Assembly (NCBI GenBank): GCA_050251055.1
Contig: JBFWNL010000002.1
Coordinates: forward strand, 416,001 to 480,000
Origin: Bacteriovoracia bacterium
GTDB lineage: Bacteria; Bdellovibrionota; UBA1018; JBFWNL01
Direction: 5' to 3'
Length of the DNA: 64,000 nucleotides
Shown here piece by piece: positions 26,471-51,466 of this stretch (its first letter is position 1; each line of letters starts with the position of its first letter). Below the pieces are notes generated by a model. It saw nothing but the letters and a program-made list of their open reading frames with translations, was not told the origin of the DNA and searched no databases. Position numbers and translations under genes: made by a program.

Positions 26471-27631
26471 GTGAATAGTTACAAGAAAGCTGGAAGAATA
26501 GGCCAAGTGAATCCGCGTTCCCCATCTCGCACTCGTTGGGTTAGCCTGACTCTGATCGTGACCGTAGGCGTTCTGGTCACCGCCCTGGGATGTGGTGCGC
26601 AGTTCTTGCGTTCGGTTCGGGCGCATTCGTTGGGATTCGTCACCTTGATCAATGCAGTGGGATCGTTTCGAATCGACGGAACGACGGGTTTGATTTCGGA
26701 ATATTCAGAAACCGCCACCACCGGCAGCTTCCACGACCTAGCCATCCGCTCGGACGGATCCAAGTTCTTTGGCAGCGGACCCTCCTCCTCCGCCCGTGCC
26801 TACCAGATCACCCCGCGCCCCGTGTCCCTGAGCGCACTGACTTCACCGGCCGTGGCCTTCATGCTAAGCGCCCTACGCTGGACCCGCTCCGACCGGTTTC
26901 TGATCGCCGGTACCTCCGACGGAAAAGTTGAAACTTACGGAACTTCGGCCACCAGCGAGCTTGCCCTCATTCAAACGCAAAGCGCTGGAGGATCCGGTAG
27001 CCTCGTACTAAAGATCGCGACTCACCCGGAAGGAAGAGTAGTCGCCGTGGTTAGCTCGAGCTCTCCCCGCCTGACGACCTACCTGCTGAGCGACGAAGGG
27101 CTGCTCACGCCCGCATTCCAATATGCCAACGTCGGCGGATCCCAAGCTATTGAGCTGCATCCCTCGGGAAGTTTTCTCTACACCGGCCTCGTCTTATCGA
27201 GCTACCGCGTGGACGGGCAAAGCGGAGAGGTGGTGAAAATCCAGACCGTCTCCCCGGCGTTCGTCACGAGCTACTCCGCGCTTACACCCGAAGGAAGCTG
27301 GCTGTTCGTGGCGAACTATTCGGGCTCCACCCACTTCAGCACGATCAAAAGTTTCTCCGTGGACGCCAACAGCGGGCTCCTCACGGAATCCGCCAGCTTC
27401 TCCTTGGAGGAATACGAGCAAATTCTATCCTTGGCTCCGCATCCGGACGGTGGATTCTTGTACGGGCTCACCGATCAGAAGAAAATCCATGTATTCGCGA
27501 TCAACGCCACGGACGGGAGTCTCCGACAGGTCGGCGTACAGGCGACCACGGGGAACGTATCAAACTTCGACGCGCGCTCGCGCCTTTTCACGATCCGCTT
27601 CCAGGAAAGCATCACCTCGCTCCAATACTGA
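26471..27631 (+). CDS. lactonase-family beta-propeller lipoprotein
   Basis: lipobox TALGC; repeated HP.G.FLY and ID..DG.L blades; start uncertain. Confidence 0.8.
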   Translation: MNSYKKAGRIGQVNPRSPSRTRWVSLTLIVTVGVLVTALGCGAQFLRSVRAHSLGFVTLINAVGSFRIDGTTGLISEYSETATTGSFHDLAIRSDGSKFFGSGPSSSARAYQITPRPVSLSALTSPAVAFMLSALRWTRSDRFLIAGTSDGKVETYGTSATSELALIQTQSAGGSGSLVLKIATHPEGRVVAVVSSSSPRLTTYLLSDEGLLTPAFQYANVGGSQAIELHPSGSFLYTGLVLSSYRVDGQSGEVVKIQTVSPAFVTSYSALTPEGSWLFVANYSGSTHFSTIKSFSVDANSGLLTESASFSLEEYEQILSLAPHPDGGFLYGLTDQKKIHVFAINATDGSLRQVGVQATTGNVSNFDARSRLFTIRFQESITSLQY

Positions 27632-27673
27632 AAGTCCGGAATGCGTCTTTTTTGACCCCCCACTAGGCAATTC

Positions 27674-27691
27674 AGTAAACACACAGAAAAC
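27674..27691 (+). promoter_or_regulatory. candidate operator 1 (direct repeat, 11-bp period)
   Basis: AGTAAAC-ACAC-AGAAAAC; related sites at 30153 and 31691. Confidence 0.5.
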
Positions 27692-27782
27692 ACTACTTCG
27701 CAAAAAATCCACCAAAACATCGGCATTTTCTGCGGTTTTACTCATGATTGAAACAGGGGAACAAATCGTAAGGGGGCTCAGG

Positions 27783-30116
27783 ATGAAACGTGACCAAGGC
27801 GGTTTCAGCTTACTGGAAGTGATGGTGGGCATGGGGGTAGCCACGGCGCTCTCCCTCGGGGTAGCCGGAGTCATCTCCTCTACGGCCAAACAAACCAAGA
27901 TCGTCGACAACCGCTCACGCGCCGCCCTCGCTTCGAACTCAATCCAGCAGATGCTCGGCAACGCTTCGGTCTGCGCCCATGCCTTCCGCCGGGTCGACCA
28001 TGCCTCCTCCGAGCCCGCCCGCGTGAACCTCACCGACCAGCCCCTGCCCTACACGGAGAGCGCGGAAGGCGCGCACGCCAAGGTCGAGGGCGCCGTTGGC
28101 GTACCGCAAGGGAACTTGGCGTTTCAAGCCATTTACCTAGGCCCCTCGCGCGTGGCATCGTTTGGGGCGCTCCTACCGGATACCTCCACTTTAAAAGTCG
28201 AAGAACTCCAATTCGTGCGTCTCGATTCTCCCAGCCCAACCCCTGGGGGAGGAGCGTTCATCACGCCGTTTGAACTGCGGCTGACCGTCTCCTCCCCCAG
28301 CCCCCAAGGGGCCACCAAATATAAATATTTTTTGAACGTCGAAACCCTTAGAGCCGATGGCCTGGAGCCGATCCGAGGATGTTCGATCCAAAACGGAATC
28401 GCGGGTAGCGGTAGCGGCACGCCCGGACGCTTGGCCAAGTGGGCCAACGCCACGACTCTCACCGATAGCGTCGTCCACGAACGTAACGGTAACATCGGGA
28501 TCGGAACCACCAATCCCGACACGGCGCTCACGATTGGCAGCTACCGAAGCACCGATCGTCTGCGCGTCAACACCAGCGACCTAGGTTTGTTGGTCGAAGT
28601 GAAGAATCCCAGTTCTCCCACCGAAGCGGATGTTGCGCAGCTCTTCGCCGGTATCCTGGAAAAAAACACTCTGGTCACCGGCGACCGCGCGCAGCTGCGG
28701 TTGGGCTTCAAGGCCAATAACGATGGAACGCCGGGAGATCTCCGAACCTTCGCGGCCGTGGAAGGCGTGGCGGAAAACGCCCAAGGCGCCACCCGCCGAA
28801 CGGGCCTGCGGTTACTCACCTCCGACACCGGTCACTCGCAGGCGCAGGAGCGCCTTCGCATCAGCGGCGCGGGGAAGGTGGGTATCGGCACGGCGGCGCC
28901 GCAGGAAGCCTTACAGATCGGACCCGAATGGACGTTTCGCGACGGCTACGGCGCGGGCAAATGGATCGTCTTCAACGGATTCTGGGAAGGCAGCAAATGG
29001 CAGTATCTAACTACGAATCCGATGTCGTTCCTGCACTTCGGTTACGACGGAAAAATCTCGTTCGGAGCGAACCCGACCGCGCCGGCGGGTAGCCAGACGA
29101 CCACTCCCCCAAAACACCTCACGATCGCCAACGACGGCAATATCGGCATCGGCACGGACAACCCCGCGGACCGCCTGGTGGTGCGAGGGCCGGCGCCTTC
29201 GCTGCGCGTGATCGATTCGGGCGCGGCGGCGGATTATGCGCAAGTGGGCGCAATTAGCGGCGCGGTAAGCGTACTTTACGGCGCCAACGCCGCGGCCTCC
29301 GGCGGGTACGGATACGTAGGCACCCAGACGAATCACCCGCTACGTTTTTACACCAATGCCGGGGCGGCCGGAGCGCCCGCCCTGACTATCACCAACAACG
29401 GCCTGATCGGCGTCGGCTCGTCGACACCGACCGAGAAGCTCGAAATCCTCGCGGGCGACCTCGCCATGAGCAACAACACCTCCATTCGTATGCGCGATAA
29501 CACGGGAACCAAGCGGGCCGCCTTGAGCTACACCTACGCCAACAACCTGCAGCTATTCAATCGGGCGGCGACCGGCGACGTGCAAATCGGCAACACGAAC
29601 AACCCCTCCGGCGAAGTGCACTTTTACACTGCGTCGACGAATGGCTCCGGGATCGAGGTACGTCGGGCCACCATCGGTGCCCAGGGCCTCACTCTCGTCA
29701 ACAACGGCAAAATTTACGTGGACAACATCCAGATTTGCTCCATCGCCGGTTGCACATCGAGTTCGGACCGCCGCCTGAAGGAAAACATCACCTCGTTAGA
29801 CGCCGACGAGTCGCTGGCGAAAATCCTCGGCCTGCAAGGGGTGACATACGACTGGAAAGATCGGGCTCGCTTCGGGGCCTCCCGTCAAATCGGCCTCATC
29901 GCCCAGGAAGTAGAGCGCATCTATCCCGAGGCCGTGGTGACGAATGAAAAAACGGGGTTGAAATCCATCGCCTACGATCACCTCGTGGCGCCCTTGATCG
30001 AGGCGGTCAAGGCCCTTTACGAGAAACTGGGCGGACGCTTGGAAAAGCTGGAGCGCGAGAACGCCGAGCTCAAAGCGCGGCTGGCACGAGTCGAAGCCGC
30101 GCTGGCGAAACGATAA
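27783..30116 (+). CDS. prepilin-type N-terminus fused to tail-fibre-like repeats and a peptidase S74 chaperone domain
   Basis: G|FSLLEVM N-methylation motif; four GNIGIGT-type repeats; SSDRRLKENI, IGLIAQEVE..YPEAV, coiled-coil end. Confidence 0.88.
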   Translation: MKRDQGGFSLLEVMVGMGVATALSLGVAGVISSTAKQTKIVDNRSRAALASNSIQQMLGNASVCAHAFRRVDHASSEPARVNLTDQPLPYTESAEGAHAKVEGAVGVPQGNLAFQAIYLGPSRVASFGALLPDTSTLKVEELQFVRLDSPSPTPGGGAFITPFELRLTVSSPSPQGATKYKYFLNVETLRADGLEPIRGCSIQNGIAGSGSGTPGRLAKWANATTLTDSVVHERNGNIGIGTTNPDTALTIGSYRSTDRLRVNTSDLGLLVEVKNPSSPTEADVAQLFAGILEKNTLVTGDRAQLRLGFKANNDGTPGDLRTFAAVEGVAENAQGATRRTGLRLLTSDTGHSQAQERLRISGAGKVGIGTAAPQEALQIGPEWTFRDGYGAGKWIVFNGFWEGSKWQYLTTNPMSFLHFGYDGKISFGANPTAPAGSQTTTPPKHLTIANDGNIGIGTDNPADRLVVRGPAPSLRVIDSGAAADYAQVGAISGAVSVLYGANAAASGGYGYVGTQTNHPLRFYTNAGAAGAPALTITNNGLIGVGSSTPTEKLEILAGDLAMSNNTSIRMRDNTGTKRAALSYTYANNLQLFNRAATGDVQIGNTNNPSGEVHFYTASTNGSGIEVRRATIGAQGLTLVNNGKIYVDNIQICSIAGCTSSSDRRLKENITSLDADESLAKILGLQGVTYDWKDRARFGASRQIGLIAQEVERIYPEAVVTNEKTGLKSIAYDHLVAPLIEAVKALYEKLGGRLEKLERENAELKARLARVEAALAKR

Positions 30117-30170: not shown

Positions 30171-30228
30171 GCATCCATAAAACCGTGTCCTGGATGACGC
30201 ATTTTAGCCGGAAAAGAGGGCAGATATA

Positions 30229-31128
30229 ATGTCTCTAAGGGGCCAATTCTTGAAAAAAAATTCCGTCCAGGAAAAATCCGCCCGCGGGCCGGTGATCTAC
30301 CAGTATCAAGACTACCGGGCTTTTCTCCGCGATTACTACCGGCACATGAAGCTGCTGCGGCCGGAGTTCTCCTTCCGCTTCCTCGCCAAACGAGGCGGCT
30401 TCAAGTCCTCCGCGATGTACAAGCTCGTAATGGAAGGGAAACGCAACCTCTCGCCGCGGGGGGCGACGAAGATCGCGCGGGCACTGAACCTCGGGCGACG
30501 CGAGTCGGATTTTTTCAAAAACCTCGTGAACTTCAACCAGTCCAAAACACCGCTACAACGGGAGCACTTCGCGGGCGAGCTCCTCGAAAGCGAAAAATAC
30601 AAGCAAACGCATCCGCTGAACGAAGCGCATTTCAACTATTTCTCGCGCTGGTTCTCGATCCCAATCCGGGAGATGGTCGGCGCCCAGGGTTTCCGCGACG
30701 ATCCGAACTTCATCGCCAAGCAGCTGATTCCCGCCATCGCCACCCATGACGCCAAGAAAGCCTTGAGCGAGCTGCAGGCGCTGGGGATCTTGGCGCGCAA
30801 TCCCGACACCGGCCGGCTCAAGCACAACACGTATTCGATCCTGACCCAAGACGAGGTGACTTCTTCCTACGCCGCGCAATTTCACCGCGAAATGATCCGG
30901 CTTGCGGGCGAAGCGATCGATCGCATCCCCAAGCCAGATCGTGACATTTCCGCCGCCACCTTCCTGCTGTCGGAAGAGGCCGCCCGCCAGTTCAAAGAAA
31001 CGATCCGCGCCATGCGCGACAAGCTCATGGACATCGTCGCCCACGACGACCGCAAGTCGCCGCGGGTCTATCAGGTGAATTTTCAGTTTTTTCCGCTCAG
31101 CCATGTCTTTCCGGAGGGCGAAGAATGA
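30229..31128 (+). CDS. TIGR02147 family (DUF4423) putative HTH regulator
   Basis: YQDYRAFLRDYY, FSFR..A...G, LVMEGKRNL, W...IRE, FHREMI, RDISAATF, VYQVNFQFFPLS. Confidence 0.9.
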   Translation: MSLRGQFLKKNSVQEKSARGPVIYQYQDYRAFLRDYYRHMKLLRPEFSFRFLAKRGGFKSSAMYKLVMEGKRNLSPRGATKIARALNLGRRESDFFKNLVNFNQSKTPLQREHFAGELLESEKYKQTHPLNEAHFNYFSRWFSIPIREMVGAQGFRDDPNFIAKQLIPAIATHDAKKALSELQALGILARNPDTGRLKHNTYSILTQDEVTSSYAAQFHREMIRLAGEAIDRIPKPDRDISAATFLLSEEAARQFKETIRAMRDKLMDIVAHDDRKSPRVYQVNFQFFPLSHVFPEGEE

Positions 31129-31673
31129 TGGTTGCTTTCGGGGTTTTTTCGAAGTGGCGCGGGGTCGGGCCGGCGATGCTCGTCCTCATCGGGCTCCTGT
31201 CCGGTTGCGCGGGCACCGACACCGTTCATACCGGAACGATCATCGGCAACCCCGTTGATCCGGACACCATTCCGCCATTGATTCACTCCGAAGTCTTGCG
31301 GCAAACCATCTGTGACCGCGTCATCGAATGCGGCGTTCCTAATATAGAAATGGAAGGATGCCTGCGGGGAGTGAATGGAACCCGCAAAACCGTGCCGCGC
31401 CTTGGCCTGTCTTCCGTCTTGTACTATGATTTCGGAGCCGTGGTGAAAAGCGAACGCCAGGGGTTTTTACGCGCCAACGAGGCCGCCGCCATTCACTGCC
31501 GAAAGGCGGTGGAACACACGAGCTGCGCGGAGATCCACAACCTAAAGATCCAGCATTTCGGGTATGAACCCCTCAATACGCTGCTCGAGGAAACCGACGG
31601 ATACTGCTTGAACTTCTTCAACTACCTGGGAGCGACGAATCCGTTCGGTGGCGCGACAGGGAACGGCCACTGA
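31125..31673 (+). CDS. cysteine-rich lipoprotein coupled to TIGR02147 gene
   Basis: ATGA overlap; lipobox LSGC; GTIIGNP; six further Cys. Confidence 0.75.
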   Translation: MMVAFGVFSKWRGVGPAMLVLIGLLSGCAGTDTVHTGTIIGNPVDPDTIPPLIHSEVLRQTICDRVIECGVPNIEMEGCLRGVNGTRKTVPRLGLSSVLYYDFGAVVKSERQGFLRANEAAAIHCRKAVEHTSCAEIHNLKIQHFGYEPLNTLLEETDGYCLNFFNYLGATNPFGGATGNGH

Positions 31674-31791: not shown

Positions 31792-32094
31792 ATGAAGAAA
31801 ACAATCGCTGGCATCCTCATGTTTTTAGCCTTAACCGGATCGACCATTTCCCTGAATGCTCCGTCGGCCCGTGCCGATGGCGGCGGGCTAGGTTGCGTCT
31901 ACTATCCAGCGGAAATTTTACCGCTTATCGAACAACTGGAAGAAGCTCACTTCATTTGTCTAATTGACTGCCGCAACGTTGCCGGGAACAACTACACGCT
32001 ATACGCTCAATGCTCCCAAGGCTGCCAACCGCTCGCAGATGCCTTAGCGGGTTATCAATGGACCGTGCGCAACTGCACGCCGATCTACAGATAA
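31792..32094 (+). CDS. small secreted cysteine-rich protein
   Basis: AAGGAG RBS; MKK signal peptide ending ARA; six Cys including two CxxxC. Confidence 0.75.
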   Translation: MKKTIAGILMFLALTGSTISLNAPSARADGGGLGCVYYPAEILPLIEQLEEAHFICLIDCRNVAGNNYTLYAQCSQGCQPLADALAGYQWTVRNCTPIYR

Positions 32095-47963: not shown

Positions 47964-49736
47964 CTACGGCAAGTACGACTGCAACGCGTGCATTTCCGCG
48001 GCGCGCATGATCTCGGCGCGGTGCGGAGCCTTGGCGACATCGCCGTCCACCGCGTCCCGCAACATCACTTCCTTGACGGCGGCCGGAATGTTACGCGCAT
48101 TGGAAGCGAGCGACGGGAGCACGAGTTCTTCGGCGAGCTTCGCGCCTTTCTCGTCACCCAAGCTCTTGATCAGCTCCTGGCGCAGGTGCCAGGCGAACCC
48201 CGCCCAGGCCTGACCGAGCTGGTGAACCGGACCGGTGCCGCTCACCGGGAACTTGTACGTATTGTCGCCCGTGCGAACCTTCGTGCCGGCACCGAGCAAG
48301 TCTTCGCCGATGATGGGCTGACCCGAAACGTAGACCGCGAGCACGTCGCCCCAACCTTCGCTCAAACCACCGTTGGTGATGCCGCCGAAGCCGTCATCCA
48401 CCAAGTGGCCATATTCATGGTACACGACCGTGTCGTAGGCGGAATTCATGCACTCCTTATCGCCCACGTAGTAGTAGTTCTGGCCGCCCGAATACATAGC
48501 GTTGCACGTCATGTCGTTCCGATTGACGTTCACCTGGGTGACCTTCTCGGTATTCTTGTTGGTCAAGCCGCGATCCACGAGGAACTGGTGCACGATGTTC
48601 GTGTGTACATACCCGTTCACCTGCGCCATCGAGTGCTGCGTGCTGTCTTTCGCGTTGAACAAGAACATGGCTTCCGCCGGGCTTTCACCGGCGATCTTGA
48701 GCAGCTGGCCCACGCCAGTCACGATCTTGGCGAATTTACCTTCGAGCGTGCCCGTCACGGGAAGCGATTTCCCCTCTTCGAGCTTGATCTTGAGCTTGCC
48801 ATCCAAGTCGGAAACCATGGCCTGCCCACCGACCGTGAGGTTCAAGTGAGCAATCGTCAGCTCATCGAGCTTGTCGCCAGTTGCCTGGGGATTGAACTTC
48901 ACCCCGCGTCCCAGGACCTGCAGGGACATTTCCCCGAACTCTTCGGCCGGCTCGTATGCATGCTCGGCGTGCTCAAAGTAACCCCGGTTTTCCTTGTGCA
49001 CGGCCCCGCTCTGCACGTCCACGATATAGGCCGTTTTATGACCCTGAAACTGGATATCGTCCCCCATGATCCAACCTTGCCGATACGTCCACTGGCGCTT
49101 GGCTAAGTGGATCGCGGCATCGGCCGTACCGGCCGCTAAACGCGCCCGATCCGCCGACTGCGCGGTCGTTAGCTGCGGAGAGACCTTGCCCGGAGCAGGC
49201 GGATTTTTCGCGAGATTAGCGTCGACGTTCACGATCTTGCCGCCCTTCACCATCACGGTGGTGCCGCAGCCTTCCACCGGAACCCCGTCCACCAGCTGTG
49301 GGTAGAAGACATAGGTCTGAGGCTCGATCATCTGGGCATTCACGCCTTGCTTTTCAGCGCTGCCAAACCGGGCGCCTTTCAGCAGGTTTCCGTAACCGGC
49401 GTCCTTCAACACGGAGAGCGCCTTATCGAGGACTTCCTGGTCAAATTCTTTTGCATCGACCGGATTGTTCAGCTCCACGCTCGCGATTTGTTCGGCGTGA
49501 TTGAGCATGCTCTCCAGCTCGGCCTTGTGGGCATTCGCGTGCGGCACTTCCATCAGCACGGTGTGCGCGCCAGGATTGGCTTTCGCCACCGAAGGCACCG
49601 CCGTCGCCGAAGCGGCCTTGCTTTGCTTAGCGCCTGAATTCCCGTACGCGATCTCGGTCACGCCCGGACTTTGATAAGCGACGACGACCATCGTCACACC
49701 CACTACCGAAAACACCATCCCTAGTGATTTACGCAT
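47964..49736 (-). CDS. secreted gluzincin metalloprotease (M4/M36-like) with propeptide
   Basis: FTP-like Q.VDGVPV; CNAMY; YHEYGH...LSEGWGD; VHQLGQAW. Confidence 0.85.
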   Translation of the reverse strand: MRKSLGMVFSVVGVTMVVVAYQSPGVTEIAYGNSGAKQSKAASATAVPSVAKANPGAHTVLMEVPHANAHKAELESMLNHAEQIASVELNNPVDAKEFDQEVLDKALSVLKDAGYGNLLKGARFGSAEKQGVNAQMIEPQTYVFYPQLVDGVPVEGCGTTVMVKGGKIVNVDANLAKNPPAPGKVSPQLTTAQSADRARLAAGTADAAIHLAKRQWTYRQGWIMGDDIQFQGHKTAYIVDVQSGAVHKENRGYFEHAEHAYEPAEEFGEMSLQVLGRGVKFNPQATGDKLDELTIAHLNLTVGGQAMVSDLDGKLKIKLEEGKSLPVTGTLEGKFAKIVTGVGQLLKIAGESPAEAMFLFNAKDSTQHSMAQVNGYVHTNIVHQFLVDRGLTNKNTEKVTQVNVNRNDMTCNAMYSGGQNYYYVGDKECMNSAYDTVVYHEYGHLVDDGFGGITNGGLSEGWGDVLAVYVSGQPIIGEDLLGAGTKVRTGDNTYKFPVSGTGPVHQLGQAWAGFAWHLRQELIKSLGDEKGAKLAEELVLPSLASNARNIPAAVKEVMLRDAVDGDVAKAPHRAEIMRAAEMHALQSYLP

Positions 49737-49763: not shown

Positions 49764-50255
49764 TTAGAACTTGATCGAACTTAGGATTTTTTCCACGTCC
49801 ATGCGGGACTGTTCATCCGCGCGAATTTGATACGAGATCTGCATGACCGCCGCCGGCCCCCGGAAAACGTAGATCGAGGTCTTCCCGCGCCATTGCACGA
49901 GATAGCCCGGACGCCCATCGACTTCCGTCGACTGCGGGAGCAGATACGGATGCTTGCTCGCGACGTACGCCTTCAGGTCGTCCAAGCTTTGGACCTGGCC
50001 CAGATCGTGCCGCGTGATGCCGACGTTAGTCGCCAGCTTCGCGTCCACGCCGTCTTCCATGAAACCGACGATCTCGCCCAAATCAAAATTATTCCAGGTG
50101 CGCGGGTACTCGGTCTCGTACCCGCCCAAGGCGCTGCGGAACTTCACGTAACGGGCGTTGCCAATTTCGCCGCCCGCGCGCACTCCGTTCGCCGCGCCCA
50201 AAGCGCCGGCCACAACTAACGAAAACAGTACCAGCTTTCGTGTCCCTGCCTTCAT
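49764..50255 (-). CDS. secreted protein coupled to TIGR02147 gene (PsbP-like fold possible)
   Basis: ATGA overlap; signal peptide ending VRA then GGEIGN; YP..W, VDGRPG, KILSSIKF. Confidence 0.75.
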   Translation of the reverse strand: MKAGTRKLVLFSLVVAGALGAANGVRAGGEIGNARYVKFRSALGGYETEYPRTWNNFDLGEIVGFMEDGVDAKLATNVGITRHDLGQVQSLDDLKAYVASKHPYLLPQSTEVDGRPGYLVQWRGKTSIYVFRGPAAVMQISYQIRADEQSRMDVEKILSSIKF

Positions 50256-51088
50256 GTCGCTCCCCCTTCTTTCATCATCGTCAGCGGAAAGAAATTCATG
50301 ACCAAATGGTAGACCTCCTCGTTGCCTTCTTTGGCCGAGTAAAGTCGGTTCAATTCCTTGCGAAACTCTTTTAATGATTTTTTGAACTCCGGGATCTTGC
50401 TCTTCGGAAGCGCGATGGTGAGCGCGCTAACTTCACGCTGCTCGATCGCGTCGTTGAAAACCGAGTTAATCCCCAGCTCCATGAACTGCCGATGCAGATC
50501 ACGAATGAGCAGCGAAGAGATTTCATCGGAGGTAGTGATGAGCGGCTCGCTCGGCACAAAACGGCCGCCGTCGCGCTTAATGAACTCGAGCTTCTCGAGC
50601 AGCTCGAGACTCGCCGCCGCTTGCTTCGGAGTGATGCGATGGCGCAGCCGTTGCGCAATCCAGGACGGGTCTTCTGAGAAGTCCTTCAGGAGCGTGAGTT
50701 CCCGGATCGCCCAGTGGTACCAGTGCTTGAGCATCTCGATACGCGCGGTTTGCACCTCGTGCACGGAATTCAAATTCCGCGCGCGGAGCTTGAGGATGTC
50801 TTTGAGGTAGTTGTTCTTGGCCTCGATGTCCTTGCATTCGGCGTAGAGCACGAGGCTGCGGAAATAATCGCTTTCGTGCTTCGAGAGGCTAAGTCCGCGC
50901 ACAAAGCTGGGCAGGTTCGTATCGGTGATGCGGCGCTGGCCGTCGATCACGAGCTTCAGGTAGTTGGGCGAGCCCAACTTCGCCTTGTTGGCGAAAACCC
51001 GGTAAGAGTAAGACGGGTTCACGCTCTTCTGCTGGCGATAGAAATCCCGTAGGTACGCTCGATAATCCGTGTACTCAAATAGCTGCAA
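50252..51088 (-). CDS. TIGR02147 family (DUF4423) putative HTH regulator
   Basis: YTDYRAYLRDFY, YSYR..A, LVIDGQRRI, WYHWAIREL, LHRQFM, REVSALT, VYHLVMNFFPLT; TTG start with GGAGG RBS. Confidence 0.9.
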   Translation of the reverse strand: MQLFEYTDYRAYLRDFYRQQKSVNPSYSYRVFANKAKLGSPNYLKLVIDGQRRITDTNLPSFVRGLSLSKHESDYFRSLVLYAECKDIEAKNNYLKDILKLRARNLNSVHEVQTARIEMLKHWYHWAIRELTLLKDFSEDPSWIAQRLRHRITPKQAAASLELLEKLEFIKRDGGRFVPSEPLITTSDEISSLLIRDLHRQFMELGINSVFNDAIEQREVSALTIALPKSKIPEFKKSLKEFRKELNRLYSAKEGNEEVYHLVMNFFPLTMMKEGGAT

Positions 51089-51466
51089 GCACCCCTCCTT
51101 GGCGTGTTGCGGTCACCCCAGGACATCACGAATCAAACGTCAAATTCTTGATGTCCCCCCAACTAACGCCTAAATGTCACCCGATTTTTCGATTTAGAAA
51201 AGGGGGGCTGAAAAATAATTCCGTTTTTTTTCTTAACGACTGTTAATGCGGGATTTTCCGCTTTCGTGCAAAAATCGCAGCTTTACCGCCTCATTTTCAT
51301 TTTTTCCGAATGCGCACAGTCTTCGATCGCCGTAGATTCAATCGCAACTGTTAGCGTCATTTTCGATATCGCATCGCGTGAAGGCCTTCGATTATTTCAC
51401 TTGGGTTTAACGCGCCCCTAAGGGAAAATCGGATCAATCGTTGTTCAACGAAGGGAAGGGACTGAA

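Follow-up and report, generated by a model that had tools for sequence, protein, structure and literature searches.

Introduction

Three groups of described bacterial systems come closest to the gene arrangement that we report here. In RRNPP systems such as Rgg/SHP and PlcR/PapR, a cytoplasmic regulator with an XRE-type helix-turn-helix (HTH) domain adjoins an exported product in which a short peptide is conserved. In FlgM/sigma-28, the type III chaperone co-activators and the Tat chaperones TorD and DmsD, each cytoplasmic protein shares an operon with one exported protein of its own, in which it could recognise a segment near the signal peptide. In the Bacteroidota lipoprotein export signal and in PEP-CTERM/exosortase, a short terminal motif found on otherwise unrelated exported proteins co-occurs with one protein family; the Bacteroidota signal, a short motif behind the lipobox cysteine, sorts lipoproteins. 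In this study we analyse a stretch of 64,000 nucleotides (contig JBFWNL010000002.1, positions 416,001 to 480,000; hereafter the window) from a Bacteriovoracia bacterium of the phylum Bdellovibrionota, which carries two copies of a two-gene cassette: a gene for a cytoplasmic regulator of the TIGR02147/DUF4423 family, followed by a gene for an exported protein (the partner) that bears a short peptide tag shortly behind its signal peptide.

TIGR02147 ('Fsuc_second')/DUF4423, of which both window regulators are clear members, is a family without a described function. It is a large family: genomes of predatory Bdellovibrio-like bacteria and fibre-degrading Fibrobacteria contain 33 to 58 copies each, and members also occur in Myxococcota-type genomes. 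For Bd3700, a DUF4423 protein, an excerpt of one report gives a 2.67-fold increase during growth in prey (PMC12546842). The literature searched for TIGR02147, DUF4423 and the Fibrobacter paralogous families, which partly consisted of titles and abstract openings, yielded no description of a pairing between such a regulator and an exported protein, or of the tag.

A regulator gene is paired with a gene for a tagged exported protein

Each of the two pairs in the window is one copy of a self-contained and widespread cassette composed of a TIGR02147/DUF4423 regulator and a tagged exported protein. Regulator 1 (30229..31128, plus strand; 299 aa) matches TIGR02147 with 237.6 bits (cut-off 50) and, over residues 123-290, the Pfam family DUF4423 (PF14394) with 114.8 bits (cut-off 30), while the corresponding scores of regulator 2 (50252..51088, minus strand; 278 aa) are 234.6 and 147 bits. 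In both cases the regulator stop codon overlaps the start codon of the partner gene in an ATGA, located by base-by-base reading at 31125-31128 (+) and 50255-50252 (-). The family assignment and both overlaps had been proposed in a preliminary description made from the sequence alone, and they are borne out here.

Partner 1 (31125..31673, plus strand) is a cysteine-rich protein of 182 aa that classes as a lipoprotein by the bacterial lipoprotein criterion: both the translation and the lipoprotein scripts place a lipobox L-S-G-C at residues 25-28 (31197..31208, plus strand), and its terminal Cys28 is invariant within the family of partner 1. The tag, G-T-I-I-G-N-P (G37-P43; 31233..31253, plus strand), begins nine residues past this cysteine; it was recognised both by a scoring matrix derived from foreign loci (score 13.2) and by a fixed expression, which are described below. 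Partner 2 (49764..50255, minus strand; 163 aa) is not a lipoprotein, as it contains no lipobox and zero cysteines, and its signal peptide has the signal-peptidase-I-type end V-R-A. Here the tag, G-G-E-I-G-N-A (G28-A34; 50154..50174, minus strand), starts with the first residue of the predicted mature protein. Both tags fit the expression G-x-x-[T/I/V]-G-N-[P/A/G], and reading of the translations revealed no twin-arginine (RR) motif in either signal peptide. The preliminary description had spoken of a glycine-rich 'IGN' segment behind the cleavage sites of two exported proteins; export and tag hold for both partners, whereas the stretch that precedes the tag of partner 1 is not glycine-rich.

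The tag also stands out in alignments of each partner with its own relatives. Among the seven sequences of the partner 1 family, the invariant columns are M1, C28, G41, N42, C63, G94 and C161, which, besides M1, correspond to the lipobox cysteine, the glycine and asparagine of the tag, two structural cysteines and a single glycine. In the partner 2 family (10 sequences with 13-31% identity) M1, G28, G32 and N33 are invariant and E30 is kept in at least 90% of the sequences. Outside the tag the two partners are mutually unrelated, as had been noted previously. For partner 1, scans against Pfam and NCBIfam matched no family. Partner 2 is PsbP-like: it reaches 13.7 bits against the Pfam PsbP model, under the cut-off of 23.5, and its model in the ESM Atlas resembles members of the PsbP, PsbP_2 and LpqN clusters, with TM scores of 0.63-0.68 over residues 33-163. 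Since these structural neighbours align from about residue 33, the modelled fold of partner 2 appears to begin right behind the tag.

The family is common in the relatives of the source organism: of 121 genomes sampled from the same phylum, 98 have a match above the TIGR02147 cut-off, and single genomes carry 33, 38 and 58 copies. Pairing was assessed with one uniform, crude script that records an open reading frame (ORF) bearing a signal peptide and starting between -70 and +300 nt from the regulator stop. By this measure, the regulator is followed by an exported protein at 176 of 190 loci from Bdellovibrionota, Fibrobacterota, Myxococcota-type and other genomes. The count comprises 28 of 30 loci in the source genome, 36 of 40 phylum loci (one per genome), all 80 of the named loci in Bdellovibrionota, Fibrobacterota, Myxococcota-type and other genomes, 13 of 20 in Bdellovibrio sp. 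HCB337 and 19 of 20 in a Fibrobacteria genome. The distance from regulator to follower is exactly -4 in 100 of the 176 loci.

The tag is enriched beside TIGR02147 genes

The source genome (G000) contains 33 TIGR02147 paralogs that pass the cut-off. Inspected by eye, about 30 of them adjoin an exported protein and three have no exported neighbour; the tag is clear in about 15 of these roughly 30 partners, present as a near variant in about six and absent from about nine. To quantify the association, an 8-residue tag matrix was trained only on the partners at the 80 foreign loci and then applied to 269 lipoprotein-like ORFs of the source genome. At a score of at least 6, it selects 9 of the 19 lipoproteins adjoining TIGR02147 genes compared to 9 of 250 other lipoproteins (Fisher 1.8e-7); at a score of at least 12 the numbers are 5 of 19 and 1 of 250. 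The single exception at the higher threshold is an orphan paralog of partner 1 (G000:C1:386744-387280, minus strand), which belongs to the same cysteine-rich family, carries the tag T-G-T-I-T-G-N-P and lies about 5.5 kb from the nearest TIGR02147 match. Among the tagged lipoproteins of the source genome, the exceptions to the usual gene order are one divergent, two upstream and one opposite-strand arrangement relative to the regulator.

In the source genome, 55 six-frame matches were obtained with a fixed expression that suits both tags of the window; 11 of these matches stand behind a signal-peptide-like segment. Eight of the 11 are no more than 900 nt away from a TIGR02147 match, a zone that amounts to 2.3% of the genome (binomial 1e-11). 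This expression was composed after the data had been seen, and the matrix test is thus the independent one of the two. The 8-residue matrix alone was noisy in a six-frame scan, with 6 of 102 matches near a TIGR02147 gene, and later enrichment tests were confined to exported N-termini in place of that scan. Among the 176 followers, 73 have the loose core G-x-x-x-G-N no more than 50 residues away from the hydrophobic segment, compared to 9 of 816 windows taken from later parts of the same proteins. The preliminary description had held that a lack of motif enrichment or of conserved gene coupling would refute it; both enrichment and coupling were found, so that it was not refuted on either count.

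Five genomes from other clades were scanned with a back-translated tag pattern, using the reversed pattern as a control, which resulted in 17 matches compared to five for the control. For five of the 17, a TIGR02147 match is found 66-132 nt upstream. Reading the other 12 in context, we found one tagged lipoprotein gene that ends at a TIGR02147 start, one ambiguous lipoprotein and ten matches that look like chance. All six clear tags on exported N-termini in these genomes hence adjoin a TIGR02147 gene. The tagged gene also stands in the upstream arrangement at locus L154, and genomes with merely 2-3 cassettes still retain the tag. A strict version of the pattern gave five matches over the 121 phylum genomes, at least three of them beside a TIGR02147 gene; this pattern is insensitive, too much so for a co-occurrence test against the 23 phylum genomes without the family above cut-off. 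Taken together, the tag is found almost only on proteins encoded beside a TIGR02147 gene.

At one locus the two halves of the cassette are joined in frame. The 944-aa stop-free ORF L203:976-3807 (minus strand) contains a TIGR02147 domain at residues 5-274; behind this domain come a hydrophobic segment, the tag-like sequence G-G-D-V-K-N-G-G-G-G and then an extended cargo region. The fusion may represent a genuine form anchored in the membrane, or it may stem from faulty assembly. No further fusion of regulator and cargo came up when databases were searched for longer forms, which is weak evidence on this point.

Tag dialects and cargo

The tag is a linear peptide of 6-8 residues with the core G-[T/G/F]-x-[T/I/V]-G-N-[P/G/A], located at the N-terminal end of the mature protein, and it comes in several dialects. 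Myxococcota-type partners carry G-T-E-T-[G/D]-N-P immediately behind the lipobox cysteine and Bdellovibrionota lipoproteins G-T-x-T-G-N-P, while the form in Fibrobacteria is [D/E]-R-[V/I]-A-G-G-[S/T]-x-[E/x]-T-x-N. Bdellovibrionota partners that are not lipoproteins, partner 2 of the window among them, have G-[G/F]-E-[I/V/L]-G-N-[G/A] at their mature N-terminus, a type that many partners in the phylum sample share. A further dialect reads x-[V/I]-G-N-G-G-D-A. The inner positions of the tag vary among paralogs of one and the same genome.

In a joint alignment of 109 partners the mean column identity is 6%, and the only columns conserved to at least 90% are the first glycine and the asparagine of the tag; neither the signal peptides nor the cargo around the tag are conserved. 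The third codon positions are free to vary across 65 tags from genomes with 33-73% GC. This free wobble variation points to selection on the peptide and rules out a DNA or RNA element in its place. A rare-codon pause at the tag asparagine was not apparent either, with AAT used in 14 of 36 tags compared to 86 of 322 other asparagine codons (p 0.17). Self-cleavage by asparagine cyclisation is unlikely, as histidine or glutamine replaces the asparagine in some partners and the following residue varies (P, G, A, V, T, S or M). Tandem double tags occur in partners at loci L146, L135, L124/L125, L144 and L136, with His or Gln in place of Asn at L144 and L124.

The partners range from 130 to 990 aa and have domains of their own. 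A Pfam scan of the 109 proteins identified nine full-length serpins, many proteins with CarboxypepD_reg, DUF2341 or Laminin_G_3 domains and a few beta-propellers; more than half matched no Pfam family, including all 29 from the phylum sample. No NCBIfam model names the tagged partners as a group. The serpins carry both lipobox and tag (Pfam E 1e-82 to 1e-108) and are each encoded directly behind a TIGR02147 gene at Myxococcota-type loci (L044, L050, L052, L061, L065, L084, L092, L100 plus one more). The tag is thus independent of the cargo fold and of the type of signal peptide. The repeated two-gene module proposed in the preliminary description, with a conserved N-terminal peptide, a freely variable remainder of the partner and a cytoplasmic HTH-type regulator, accordingly holds well beyond the window.

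Regulator domains and candidate operators

A profile built from 18 paralogs was compared with chains of the Protein Data Bank (PDB). Approximately residues 17-97 match XRE-type HTH domains (8bny, E 2e-4; HigA 2icp, E 3e-3) and approximately residues 122-208 match MarR-type winged helices (FabT 6jbx, E 1.4e-4; ZitR; SlyA). Pfam models point the same way for individual paralogs, with HTH_31 in 11 of 18 and HTH_3 in 7 of 18 at E values up to 0.1, and with winged-helix models matching one or two paralogs apiece, MarR_2 and TrmB 2 of 18 each; the HTH matches do not include the two window regulators. There is no TPR family among the Pfam matches of the 18 paralogs, and no signal peptide or membrane segment was seen in the regulator. 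Both halves of the regulator hence look akin to DNA-binding domains, and judging by these profile matches the regulator looks like an XRE-type HTH domain joined to a MarR-like winged helix that lies within DUF4423.

Upstream of a subset of regulators, within 160 nt, recurs the word TGTATTC/GAATACA, which was discovered in the phylum sample. Enrichment is also seen in sets outside this discovery sample, with the word at 3 of 30 loci in the source genome (6 occurrences, about 0.27 expected), at 5 of 26 Myxococcota/delta loci (7 occurrences, about 0.1 expected) and at 3 of 11 unclassified loci. Fibrobacterota show no enrichment, as the word stands at 2 of 36 loci while about 0.9 occurrences are expected. 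At L111 and L115 the word forms a full palindrome with a 2-nt spacer, and further loci that carry it, in various genomes and phyla, include L120/L032, L121, L131, L132 and L148, the source-genome loci L001, L007 and L023, and L045, L055, L068, L082, L083 and L108. Approximately 15-20% of the cassettes have this upstream element in common, which makes it a candidate operator for a subset of the family.

Each window cassette has an inverted repeat of its own as a candidate operator. The repeat CATCCA-N13-TGGATG (30172..30196, plus strand) lies 33-57 nt upstream of regulator 1, and the perfect 8-bp inverted repeat GGACATCA-N20-TGATGTCC (51121..51156, minus strand) lies 33-68 nt upstream of regulator 2. 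Both were located by script, occur as a single copy in the window and were found in 0 of 100 shuffles. Consensus scans for promoters and terminators around the two cassettes gave nothing that exceeds the shuffled background.

A difference in base composition was also seen upstream of the paralogs in the source genome, which has 58% GC overall. In the 150 nt before the 21 lower-scoring TIGR02147 paralogs (C3:188411, C13:8789 and C1:211444, for example), 19 of 21 have 12-41% GC, compared to 46-72% GC upstream of the 12 top-scoring paralogs, both window genes included. Such AT-rich islands might serve as promoters or operators, or be subject to silencing.

Genes adjoining the window cassettes

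Directly upstream of the first pair is a long ORF (27450-30116, plus strand) with a pilin-type N-terminal methylation motif (21 bits, slightly below the cut-off of 21.2) and a Peptidase_S74 intramolecular-chaperone domain (E 5.5e-20). Another ORF (31792-32094, plus strand), 118 nt past partner 1, encodes an exported cysteine-rich protein of 100 aa that has neither the tag nor a Pfam family. In the second pair, partner 2 is followed after 27 nt and on the same strand by an ORF (47964-49736, minus strand) for a 590-aa exported HExxH metallopeptidase with a weak M36 match (E 1.2e-4), which might belong to the operon as its third gene.

Discussion

The TIGR02147 protein is probably a cytoplasmic DNA-binding protein, and the small operon to which its gene belongs is most likely under its control. 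The product of the adjoining gene is predicted to be exported, as a lipoprotein in some cassettes and as a substrate of signal peptidase I in others, with the tag at its mature N-terminus and outside the cargo fold. We tentatively favour, at somewhat less than even confidence, a direct functional link between the tag and the regulator, by which each regulator would learn from the tag what state its cargo is in. In the simplest such link, and the one that we consider most likely, the regulator would recognise the tag while the precursor is still in the cytoplasm; transcription of the operon would thereby be coupled to export, in the manner of a secretion-coupled feedback. This reading is favoured because a sorting signal of general use should also turn up on proteins without a regulator, of which almost none were found, and because the pairing survives divergent and upstream arrangements. 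In a more specific version, which we consider possible but rather doubtful, the tag would be a cis-acting reporter of export status, each regulator reading the precursor of its own neighbour, and the variable inner positions would be dialects that separate the dozens of paralogous cassettes within a cell.

Several points weigh against a direct link. Both the contact between regulator and tag and an effect of the tag on transcription are steps that we infer. The tag is constant in many cassettes of the same cell, so that specificity is not obvious unless recognition occurs in cis or depends on the variable inner positions. About 9 of the 33 paralogs of the source genome adjoin an exported protein without a recognisable tag, and the three that lack an exported neighbour add to this number. 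As regulator and tag are at most about 150 nt apart in most cassettes, linkage alone could account for some of their co-occurrence. Moreover, both window cassettes lack the TGTATTC/GAATACA word and each instead has its own upstream inverted repeat. A co-fold of regulator 1 with residues 25-75 of partner 1 scored 0.19, with a mark of 0.32, and counts neither way.

The tag could alternatively be read on the far side of the membrane, as a sorting, anchoring, docking or processing signal recognised after export by shared machinery, with the regulator merely a local transcription factor and the cassettes spreading as units whose cargo is swapped. The position of the tag fits this well, as it always stands behind a signal peptide, opens the mature sequence of partners that are not lipoproteins and lies outside the cargo fold; in addition, several partners carry it in tandem, as is common for docking motifs, and the Bacteroidota lipoprotein export signal provides a precedent for motifs past the lipobox cysteine that sort lipoproteins. 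A general signal of this kind should, however, also occur without the regulator. The tagged lipoproteins of the source genome include a single orphan, and the five other genomes contain no clear orphan and one ambiguous case. Retention of the tag in genomes with just two or three cassettes, the pairing kept in divergent and upstream arrangements and the missing third conserved gene likewise speak against it, and we regard this explanation as a serious competitor, albeit one that is on balance doubtful. A motif without function, be it chance or an inherited remnant of the head of a common ancestral cassette, would accord with the evident duplication of the cassettes to 33, 38 and 58 copies in single genomes. 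The enrichment statistics contradict it, as do the two tag positions that stay conserved in the joint alignment while flanking signal peptides and cargo do not, and the persistence of the tag across three phyla despite free synonymous change, which leaves this explanation barely credible.

Two further explanations also have the regulator bind the tag. Rather than acting mainly as a transcription factor, the TIGR02147 protein might be a private cytoplasmic escort that binds the tag of its neighbour's precursor in order to hold or target it prior to export, similar to the operon-specific chaperones of Tat substrates. One-to-one pairing with translational coupling (the -4 gap), the proximity of the tag to the signal peptide and the natural fusion of regulator, hydrophobic segment, tag and cargo at L203 would suit such an escort; the resemblance of both regulator halves to DNA-binding domains, the conserved palindromic word upstream of a subset of the genes, the lack of a twin-arginine motif in the partners' signal peptides and the fact that L203 is the sole fusion found make it unlikely. 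Alternatively, the regulator might bind a tag that has been cleaved from the partner beyond the cytoplasm and taken up again, like the peptides of the Gram-positive RRNPP systems. The preliminary description had drawn a loose comparison of this sort, and a loose likeness is what stands: an XRE-type HTH regulator adjoins an exported protein, a single cut past the tag would free a peptide of 6-8 residues in the non-lipoprotein type, and the inner positions of the tag differ among paralogs of one genome. The regulator has no TPR-like peptide-binding domain, however, the partners are full-size proteins with folds of their own, lipoproteins would need two cuts, the tag core is common to dozens of cassettes per cell and the cassette includes neither a peptide transporter nor a protease, so that we consider a circuit of this kind distinctly improbable.

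With regard to the family as a whole, the simple rule that a regulator stands beside an exported protein with a short tag fits most of the sampled members and offers a first testable function for it. The tag joins previously unlinked envelope and secreted proteins, among them lipoprotein serpins, lectin-like proteins and many orphan folds, into one type of regulon. Should the regulator indeed learn of export through the tag, gene expression would be coupled to secretion in a new way, and a one-to-one, secretion-coupled transcription switch would be of a kind that has not been described for diderm bacteria. If the tag is a sorting or docking signal instead, it would be a new address label of the envelope. 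On either reading, it provides a practical handle for finding and studying such proteins.

Compared with the systems considered at the outset, the cassette resembles each in part. It departs from RRNPP systems in that its regulator is without a TPR-type sensor and its partner is a full-size lipoprotein or secreted protein rather than a small pro-peptide; its hosts are diderm, and the core of the tag is common to all cassettes of a cell rather than private to one. FlgM/sigma-28, the type III co-activators and TorD/DmsD involve unrelated protein families, and the cassette partners would be exported by Sec, with signals of the signal peptidase I and II types (SPI/SPII) and no twin-arginine motif, while binding between the cassette proteins is a presumed step. 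Lastly, the protein family that accompanies the tag is cytoplasmic and apparently of DNA-binding type, in contrast to the membrane enzyme or transporter of PEP-CTERM/exosortase and the Bacteroidota export signal, and the tag, which is also found on proteins that are not lipoproteins, is tied to its regulator by gene-by-gene adjacency and not as one of many substrates of one machine.

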